Shown here: positions 54,146-54,482 of the stretch, in pieces | Numbering within the stretch: the first letter of the stretch is position 1 | How the letters are laid out: each line of letters starts with the position of its first letter | Origin: a virus | Virus record (IMG/VR): IMGVR_UViG_3300045988_167643 | Length of the DNA: 64,000 bases | Strand: one strand, 5' to 3' | The notes under the pieces: model-generated | The model's input: the letters and a program-made list of their open reading frames with translations, nothing else | The model's database searches: none | Told to the model about the DNA's origin: nothing | Program-made: the position numbers and the translations under genes

Positions 54146-54170
54146 TAGATAAATGAAGAAGTAAATTGTG

Positions 54171-54179
54171 TGGTATGAT
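54171..54179 (+). promoter_or_regulatory. extended -10 promoter (TGGTATGAT), convergent with the minus-strand peptide gene
   Basis: AATTGTGTGGTATGAT, same motif as at 23110 and 25577. Confidence 0.45.
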
Positions 54180-54204
54180 GCCGCAGCTGGCGAAATCACC
54201 TATA

Positions 54205-54288
54205 TTATAGTAGTTTGGCGATAATACCAAATACTATACCTATAAAACTGAAGACTAAGCTCCAGCTGTTAAATAATTCCTTTAACAT
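54205..54288 (-). CDS. 27-aa hydrophobic peptide, type I toxin-like
   Basis: Minus strand: AAGGAG, 6 nt, then ATG; MLKELFNSWSLVFSFIGIVFGIIAKLL; the only SD-supported minus-strand ORF seen. Confidence 0.55.
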   Translation of the reverse strand: MLKELFNSWSLVFSFIGIVFGIIAKLL

Positions 54289-54442
54289 AGGCGACTCCTT
54301 TCAAACATAGCAAATTAACAAGTTACTAGCTAATATTTTACGCAGGAGCTGATCCGCCTTAACATCTAGCGGTTCCAATAGGTGATTTTAGATTTTGCCA
54401 GTCCCTTGGGTATGTATTGGATACCCAAACACCTTAGCAGGT

Positions 54443-54451
54443 ATTGTACCA
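54443..54451 (-). promoter_or_regulatory. extended -10 promoter (TGGTACAAT on minus strand) for the peptide mRNA
   Basis: The complement of 54443-54453 reads TGTGGTACAAT, close to the plus-strand consensus. Confidence 0.4.
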
Positions 54452-54482
54452 CATATTTACCATATATTTCAAGGAGAAACTA

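Follow-up and report, generated by a model that had tools for sequence, protein, structure and literature searches.

We report that a 64,000-nt stretch of viral DNA (IMG/VR virus record IMGVR_UViG_3300045988_167643, hereafter the window) contains a conserved element of 318 nt (54156-54473) in which a small open reading frame (ORF) for a hydrophobic peptide lies on the minus strand of a strongly folding sequence. Our leading reading, held tentatively and at a probability of roughly 0.4, is that this element may be a cis-antisense-controlled membrane-peptide cassette, similar to type I toxin-antitoxin systems (defined in general terms in an excerpt of PMC8309996) and belonging to no described family. 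It is ranked first because a strong promoter match, a Shine-Dalgarno sequence (SD) and an ATG that opens a hydrophobic ORF follow one another in the right order, an arrangement judged unlikely to arise by chance. The block was found in 22 contigs (11 viral and 11 metagenomic; human gut where the source was stated), which represent 12 distinct haplotypes that are 94-98% identical. It has distinct sequence features and a strong predicted fold, occurs as a syntenic single copy, is constrained at the nucleotide level and preserves the ORF. Sequence evidence alone cannot assign function to one strand, and the four readings weighed below are not mutually exclusive. Most of these features had been noticed in an earlier inspection of the DNA (the sequence-only reading); the features are real, the observation was partly confirmed and its interpretation as a toxin gene is partly supported.

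The minus-strand mini-ORF (MLKELFNSWSLVFSFIGIVFGIIAKLL; 27 codons plus stop, 54205-54288, with the ATG at 54288 and the stop codon at 54205-54207) was recovered from the ORF list exactly as the sequence-only reading had described it. It is intact in all haplotypes, and an in-frame stop lies 4 codons upstream of its ATG. The SD read from the sequence, AAGGAG, stands 6 nt before the ATG as claimed, at a position that had to be corrected by one nucleotide (complement of 54295-54300, not of 54296-54301). The assertion that this was the sole SD-supported minus-strand ORF in 64 kb did not hold: a scan of the window returned four others of at least 20 codons with an SD and an ATG (starts at 36961, 36096, 33679 and 22378), three of which lie inside plus-strand ORFs and one, at 36961, in a repeat-bearing gap; several have weaker SDs. 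In the encoded peptide, the N-terminus is polar and a single transmembrane stretch is predicted, within which G17xxxG21 lies. For type I toxins, Fozo et al. (2010) look for a hydrophobic stretch in ORFs of 16-70 aa, defined by a minimum of 10 residues out of 15 being I, V, L, F, C, M or A; in this 27-aa peptide, the segment LVFSFIGIVFGIIAK has 11 such residues out of 15. Further features named by the same authors, a polar, charged or aromatic C-terminal cluster and tandem duplication, are frequent and not obligatory.

Upstream of the mini-ORF, a consensus scan identified a sigma-70-like promoter match on the minus strand (54443-54472), made of a -35 box TTGAAA (54472-54467), an 18-nt spacer, TG and a -10 box TACAAT (54448-54443). 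The extended -10 box reported as the complement of 54443-54453 is present as TGTGGTACAAT, and we infer a transcript start at about 54436. Only one other site in the 64 kb has at least 10 of 12 consensus positions plus TG; shuffled sequences gave 3.5 such sites per 128 kb (both strands), which corresponds to about 0.01 expected for this gap and strand. On the plus strand, the copy of the extended -10 motif described at 54169-54179 is present as TGTGGTATGAT (-10 hexamer TATGAT, 54174-54179) and is invariant in 12/12 haplotypes. It would place an RNA start near 54186; a good -35 box is absent. Exact copies of TGTGGTATGAT occur three times on the plus strand of the window, all of them intergenic, and the two others (23110 and 25576) stand 57-60 nt upstream of start codons. 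A second exact TGTGGTACAAT was observed on the minus strand at 25162-25172, inside the integrase gene and 404 nt upstream of the plus-strand TGTGGTATGAT at 25576; this pair could be a chance occurrence or a second paired arrangement. The motif CCACATATT was also considered as a recurrent phage promoter and was rejected, as its 3 exact matches in the window and the 27 with one mismatch (18 expected) do not lie upstream of genes.

The two promoter-like boxes are mutually complementary and form the arms of one 21-bp helix (P1), a property not mentioned in the sequence-only reading. RNAfold, RNAalifold and an inverted-repeat scan all returned the 5' arm (54161-54182, plus strand), which is predicted to pair with a 3' arm at 54440-54460 that includes the mirror of the plus-strand promoter box; four of the pairs are G.U in the plus sense only. 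Since TGTGGTATGAT and TGTGGTACAAT are complementary, "convergent promoters" and "one long helix" describe the same bases twice. Both boxes of the proposed convergent promoters are present, and reading them as the two sides of an RNA helix explains them just as well. A second helix (P2), available to either strand, pairs 54186-54203 with 54378-54403, the latter arm carrying a 7-nt bulge, and contains two G.U pairs in the plus sense only. Its core is the 11-nt perfect inverted repeat noted before (54193-54203 and 54378-54388), which our scan also detected and which is here lengthened to an 18-bp fold-back. The chance estimate of about 1% given for this repeat was close, 59 of 3000 gap shuffles (about 2%) producing one of this length. 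Together, P1 and P2 close the whole gap into one multi-branched fold with a predicted energy of -91.4 kcal/mol on the plus strand (z = -5.09) and -95.1 kcal/mol on the minus strand (z = -3.89); in each case 0/100 shuffles were as good. The 8-bp hairpin described at 54406-54428 was likewise found by the inverted-repeat scan, lies between P2 and P1, is assigned to no particular strand and is the most variable part of the element.

The interior of the fold (54204-54377) reached -45.9 kcal/mol in the minus sense (z = -2.4) versus -32.2 kcal/mol in the plus sense (z = -1.8), where 11/200 shuffles folded as well. The predicted minus-sense interior contains G.U pairs specific to that strand, and both the SD and the AUG region are paired in it. 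The partner of the SD in the minimum-free-energy folds is a CUCCU (complement of 54344-54348) within an anti-SD segment at 54344-54349 on the minus strand, in line with the earlier suggestion that an upstream segment could sequester the SD. Of the mRNA features that had been called hok/fst-like, the fold-back and the SD pairing appear in the predicted minus-strand folds; the fold-back is equally available to the plus strand, and covariation was seen for neither strand.

We propose the following mechanism, each step of which is inferred from sequence. The minus-strand promoter, of host type (TTGAAA, 18 nt, TGgTACAAT), would start an mRNA near 54436. This mRNA would fold into a closed domain in which P2 joins the 5' untranslated region (UTR) to the bases that directly follow the stop codon, and with AAGGAG paired to CUCCU and the AUG region also paired, the full-length message would be poorly translatable. 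On the plus strand, TGTGGTATGAT would start an RNA near 54186, to which read-through from upstream genes would add. This RNA would be fully complementary to the peptide mRNA and could block its translation or trigger cleavage of the duplex by a double-strand-specific RNase. Upon loss of the antisense RNA, the 27-aa peptide would be made, insert into the membrane as one helix with its GxxxG motif and harm the cell. The window encodes a tyrosine recombinase/integrase (24316-25353; PF00589, E = 2.6e-25), so the phage is probably temperate or plasmid-like and a role in maintenance (addiction) or abortive killing is plausible. A weak ParB-like match (1381-2412) and a match to DnaD-like replication initiators (38962-40785) were also observed; with the recombinase, they suggest a temperate phage or a phage-plasmid.

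To follow the element in other genomes, IMG/VR was queried with ClpP and with the 150-aa protein encoded upstream (orf150), and IMG/VR, a metagenome collection and 185,579 species genomes were searched with degenerate back-translations of the peptide (two patterns in IMG/VR, of which one was also run on the metagenomes and genomes). Related phage loci compared with the window carry L-numbers as labels. An intact ORF was found in all 22 related contigs, which answers the earlier proposal to look for the peptide in related genomes. The degenerate patterns retrieved only this clade plus three chance matches; no copy was found in the 185,579 species genomes, nor any more distant relative. Blastn against 50,697 phage records gave no match to the element, nhmmer did not find it in any of the other related loci and tblastn found no paralogue of the peptide. 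The conserved block, with features on both strands, is single-copy (nhmmer) and always syntenic, following an RNA-repair gene and orf150. Its left edge is the end of the variable orf150, and its right edge is the ClpP junction, position 54473 being a breakpoint in relatives without ClpP.

The element is better conserved than the genes around it. Identity to the window was 96-99.5% over its left 200 nt and 92-97.5% over its right 118 nt, as compared with 79-85% at third codon positions of the RNA-repair (Pnkp-like) gene, 68-86% at those of orf150 and 75-94% at those of the next downstream gene. L088 is the most diverged relative, and there the element keeps 96% identity while third positions of the genes on both sides are at 73-82%. 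As these flanks do not exceed 82%, the block is under constraint and is not merely young. The host genomes of the element are mosaic, about 90% identical overall with third-position identities of 0.64-1.0 from gene to gene. The ClpP cassette (54474-55043, plus strand, outside the element; ClpP ORF 54483-55040, Pfam CLP_protease, E = 2.9e-27) is present in some relatives and absent in L084-L091 and L106/L108/L110-L113/L115; in L085, a small unrelated gene of 68 codons occupies the ClpP junction. The element is kept at 95-98% identity in relatives without ClpP, and none of about 76 other gut-phage loci with a ClpP 62-74% identical contains it. ClpP is therefore a presence/absence cassette and the element is not a ClpP leader as such; a ClpP-specific leader, riboswitch or attenuator was rejected on the ground that the element persists where ClpP is missing.

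Several observations weigh against the toxin-like cassette. The peptide had no match in Pfam or NCBIfam at E <= 10, and its sole match among PHROGs (E = 0.17) was to a family of unknown function. No profile similarity to known toxin families (Fst/Ldr, Hok, TisB, Ibs, ShoB, TxpA/BsrG, PepA1 and others) was detected. The C-terminus, which ends in AKLL, has no polar or aromatic cluster, so that of the earlier comparison with Fst, TisB and PepA the single hydrophobic helix stands and the polar C-terminal end does not. Nhmmer and tblastn found no tandem or second copy of the locus in the window or in any related locus. A search of both strands from 53500 to 55300 revealed no intrinsic terminator; terminators are a feature of the Firmicute type I loci that have been described. 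Loss of the ORF and promoter in relatives had been named beforehand as evidence against a toxin: the ORF and its ATG are kept in 22/22 contigs, which favours the toxin reading, and the minus-strand -10 box is altered in 3/12 haplotypes, which speaks against it. Two of these haplotypes, covering 5 loci (L001/L081/L093/L109 and L114), carry -11A->G (54447; TGCAAT) and one, covering 4 loci (L084/L086/L094/L099), carries -12T->C (54448; CACAAT); the mini-ORF is intact in all three. The SD is kept in 11/12 haplotypes and weakened to AAGAAG in the remaining one (L088/L103/L111).

Substitutions within the mini-ORF were also analysed. Its 7 variable sites reflect 8 events, 4 at first, 4 at third and 0 at second codon positions; 4 events are synonymous and 4 are conservative hydrophobic replacements (V/I, F/I, F/L and I/M), and G17 and G21 are invariant. 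When all 28-codon windows of the element, in every frame, were taken as reference, the mini-ORF ranked within the top 10% for its synonymous fraction, and zero changes at position 2 occurred in 6.5% of windows. This pattern is suggestive of coding, at a p of about 0.04-0.1 drawn from only 8 events, a thinness that also counts against the cassette. Third positions of the mini-ORF differ by 0-7% between haplotypes and are as conserved as the rest of the element, another adverse point; such low divergence indicates constraint at the nucleotide level and does not by itself establish coding. An RNA would be expected to show constraint of this type, and so would an mRNA that a functional antisense RNA overlaps.

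The reading that comes a close second, possible although we regard it as less likely, is a structured plus-strand RNA of about 300 nt (54161-54466), closed by the 39-bp interrupted P1-P2 duplex, in which the ORF would be incidental and the minus-strand SD, ATG and promoter would be mirror images of plus-strand sequence. Such an RNA might be a processing or stability element (a target of a double-strand RNase between cistrons) or an excised non-coding RNA also made from the internal promoter. A second set of observations counts against the cassette and in favour of this RNA. All 6/6 transition mismatches of the P1-P2 inverted repeat are G.U in the plus sense and A.C in the minus sense (two-sided p of about 0.03), and 6/7 polymorphisms in P1 keep plus-strand pairing. 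Over the whole consensus fold, variable pairs were 12 compatible and 9 broken on the plus strand versus 5 and 11 on the minus strand. Because the wobbles and the P1 polymorphisms fit the plus strand, the minus-strand "promoter" may be a mere mirror of the plus-strand promoter within an RNA helix. The plus-strand box is unchanged in 12/12 haplotypes while its minus-strand mirror carries three substitutions. The best fold z-score (-5.09) belongs to the plus strand, the synonymous sites of the mini-ORF are as conserved as the rest of the element and the other genes in the 64 kb are all on the plus strand.

The equivalent slot in distant relatives adds to the case for the plus-strand RNA. In three loci (L067, L075 2839-2919; L076 2837-2917), a skipping-rope RNA (RF02924, 66-71 bits) lies 80 nt upstream of ClpP, and ahead of it the same strand carries a hydrophobic ORF of 51 aa with two helices. 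The gaps upstream of ClpP in L004 and L034 contain T-arm-like GGTTCGA(C/T)TCC sequences, in which ARAGORN called no tRNA. In L092, a distant locus with an orf150 homologue, that gene is followed by a tRNA-Gln and then by a 12-bp perfect hairpin (3452-3525 and 3564-3624). The 3' arm of this hairpin, CTGTGTACCCAC-ATAT (of the form TGTACC(C)ACATAT), resembles the P1 3' arm TTGTACCAC-ATAT, as does the arm together with its following bases, TGTACCCACATAT. The TACCCACATAT motif recurs upstream of ClpP in the L003/L004/L034 group. These data suggest that the slot collects plus-strand RNA genes, and further suggest that P1 derives from an older local hairpin, its interior of about 255 nt being specific to this lineage.

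Other results argue against the plus-strand RNA. It had no Rfam match even at E <= 10, and its interior taken alone barely beats shuffles (z = -1.8; 11/200). No terminator defines a stand-alone RNA, and a transcript from the internal promoter, if real, would be without the P1 5' arm. Among the 12 haplotypes, no pair showed a double compensatory change, which we attribute to the shallowness of the clade, and variable sites are not depleted in stems (21/43 paired versus 55% of columns); comparative support for any particular fold is therefore absent. The hairpin region (54396-54435) has 10 variable sites, and one pair of the 8-bp hairpin is broken in 2 haplotypes. This reading also leaves the ordered SD, ATG, hydrophobic ORF and extended -10 promoter (10/12) of the other strand as a coincidence.

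It is rather improbable, in our estimation, that the mini-ORF is a real small membrane protein without toxicity, for instance a moron expressed in lysogeny and acting as a modulator of a host membrane protein or in superinfection exclusion, in which case antisense transcription would simply follow from where the gene lies. Toxicity is absent from many small membrane proteins with a single helix. The ORF and promoter evidence is the same as for the toxin-like cassette, and the tail of charged or aromatic residues that Fozo et al. (2010) list for type I toxins is missing from the peptide. Mutation of the -10 box and the absence of a terminator count against a non-toxic peptide as they would against any minus-strand gene, and its full overlap with a conserved convergent promoter, together with the predicted SD sequestration, exceeds what a moron needs.

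Some of these ideas could be combined, although we would not wager much on it, into a two-strand module in which the plus strand makes an RNA of about 300 nt, closed by the 39-bp helix, that serves as antitoxin, processing element and leader of an exchangeable cassette, while the minus strand encodes a membrane-toxic peptide of 27 aa. The loop of an ancestral hairpin, which is still short in distant relatives, would have taken up the interior. A large gut phage or phage-plasmid, also equipped with a PurZ-like enzyme and a CRISPR-like array, would use the whole for addiction or abortive infection.

We consider it very unlikely that the element is a regulatory or recombination boundary acting as DNA, that is, a promoter with a long palindromic protein-binding or recombination signal, no functional RNA and a chance ORF: it does lie, in mosaic genomes, with the hypervariable orf150 (61-83% amino-acid identity) on one side and the presence/absence ClpP cassette on the other, and promoter-bearing inverted repeats occur upstream of ClpP in some other phage groups (for example L014), but the approximately 250 nt between the arms are conserved at least as strongly as the arms (left 200 nt, 96-99.5%), the strong overall fold is left unexplained and an element present as a single copy cannot act as a dispersed recombination sequence.

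A number of simpler explanations were rejected. A mobile multi-copy or miniature inverted-repeat element is contradicted by the occurrence of one copy per genome at a constant site, with no direct repeat flanking the arms. ARAGORN and the Rfam covariance models returned no tRNA, tmRNA or known RNA family (skipping-rope, riboswitch and ribozyme included): Rfam gave no match in the window at gathering score and only chance-level matches (E = 1.9-7.8) within 54100-54520. A hidden gene under a recoded stop codon was dismissed because the plus-strand frames across the gap all contain every stop type; the sole frame across the gap that is free of one stop type (TAG) is the mini-ORF's own minus frame. 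The start region of the mini-ORF (54278-54300; AAGGAG N6 ATGTTAAAGGA) is approximately an inverted copy of the ClpP start region (54471-54493; AAGGAG N6 ATGTCAAAGGA), so that on a plus-strand RNA it could mask the ClpP ribosome-binding site. The resulting idea that the minus-strand SD and ATG are the mirror of a ClpP anti-ribosome-binding site was judged weak: ClpP was the best of 165 start regions (17/26 identities) by a small margin over runners-up with 16 and 15 identities, and the sequence is kept where ClpP is absent.

The window as a whole is AT-rich (31.6% GC), and its credible genes other than the minus-strand mini-ORF are all on the plus strand. Coordinates and GC content in 150-nt windows agreed with the earlier description of a 337-nt gap richer in GC than its surroundings: the gap (54146-54482), which separates orf150 (stop codon at 54143-54145) from ClpP (ATG at 54483), has a GC fraction of 0.35-0.40 versus 0.21-0.30 in the flanks and 0.316 in the whole window. 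Upstream of orf150, a 732-aa fusion protein (51523-53721) combines a P-loop kinase, a metallophosphoesterase and a T4-type RNA ligase, and resembles the RNA repair enzyme Pnkp; its identity is 46-47% with proteins of SPbeta-like Bacillus phages and about 40% with those of Twort-like Staphylococcus phages. The orf150 gene itself (53693-54145) had no match in Pfam or NCBIfam and is a local divergence hot spot, with 61-83% amino-acid identity where neighbouring genes reach 90-100%.

Elsewhere in the window, five direct repeats of about 36 nt (GTTTTGTAACCATGTAAATTAAGAGGTATACAAAAC-like) with a 66-nt period form a CRISPR-like mini-array (36661-36969). It is located 187 nt upstream of the gene for a 598-aa protein (37156-38952) with RRXRR (PF14239, E = 3e-32) and HNH domains, a domain pair that recalls the IscB nucleases and the ancestors of Cas9. 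A role of the element as anti-repeat or tracrRNA for this array was rejected, as blastn-short with the element gave no match near it. A homologue of adenylosuccinate synthetase (44429-45526; Pfam PF00709) matched the PurZ-type PHROG phrog_1211 (E = 2e-69). We take a PurZ-like enzyme to mean that the phage may replace adenine by 2-aminoadenine in its DNA, which would also affect promoter predictions based on consensus.

If the peptide is toxic, the element would represent a type I toxin-antitoxin-like family without sequence relative, carried by uncultivated human-gut phages of about 120-220 kb, and its antitoxin would be a gene leader instead of a discrete small RNA. This would widen the range of places where such modules are sought, because annotation of phage genomes with genes in one direction never includes small ORFs on the opposite strand. 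If the plus-strand RNA is the functional product, the element would be an orphan structured RNA of about 300 nt in a slot next to an RNA-repair enzyme, where relatives hold a tRNA or a skipping-rope RNA. The practical gain is modest either way, the clade being narrow and the element known from its DNA only.

Among known systems, the toxin-like cassette is closest in outline to enterobacterial type I toxin-antitoxin loci such as ibs/Sib, in which Sib is fully complementary to ibs, shoB/OhsC and tisB/IstR. Common to both are a peptide of 18-29 aa that amounts to about one transmembrane helix with no long polar tail, an antisense RNA from the opposite strand and a structured toxin mRNA, the last two being predictions here. 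There is no sequence similarity and the host range differs. The enterobacterial loci have discrete, terminated small RNAs and often occur in tandem, whereas the present element has no terminator, is single-copy and would use the leader of downstream phage genes as its antisense RNA.

Firmicute loci, namely par (fst/RNAI-RNAII) of pAD1 and bsrG/SR4, yonT/SR6 and txpA/RatA of B. subtilis prophages (excerpts of PMC5848175 and PMC3531473), share with the element the setting of a Firmicute mobile element, convergent promoters (predicted ones here) with a spacing of about 250 nt and a small hydrophobic peptide, which is a toxin there and a candidate toxin here. For both, silencing could plausibly depend on RNase III acting on the sense/antisense duplex, and the kinase-phosphatase-ligase next to the element is 46-47% identical to an SPbeta-like phage protein. 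SPbeta toxins are 38-58 aa long. In the Firmicute pairs, the overlap is confined to the 3' ends, and the terminators are their own or shared; the two RNAs of the element would overlap completely, and it has no terminator. In Fst/Ldr toxins, a conserved Trp follows the helix and the tail is charged (Fozo et al. 2010), features that are both absent from this peptide. With hok/sok, the element has in common a long-range 5'-3' fold-back around the coding region and sequestration of the SD by an upstream complementary segment, both predicted here, and a context of mobile-element maintenance. It differs in having no hok homology, no discrete Sok-like RNA and no mok-like overlapping frame with its own SD (an upstream 25-codon TTG ORF is without SD), and in a fold-back that is equally possible on the other strand.

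For the plus-strand RNA, the nearest counterpart in position is the skipping-rope RNA (RF02924; Weinberg et al. 2017, PMC5737381), which is likewise structured and an orphan, is 80 nt long and has a 3' terminator. It too is found in the equivalent position upstream of ClpP with a small hydrophobic ORF before it. It differs in size and ending (80 nt with a terminator versus about 300 nt without) and in having its hydrophobic ORF on the same strand as the RNA, and cmscan detected no similarity between the two even at E <= 10. The R sites at which RNase III processes polycistronic phage transcripts, such as those of T7, are simple hairpins of about 50-60 nt, and long stems flank rRNA precursors. 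The element, by contrast with R sites, is a 300-nt multi-branched domain in which RNase III cleavage is hypothetical; with both it shares a long interrupted duplex (P1-P2, about 39 bp) that flanks an intergenic domain within a one-directional transcription unit.

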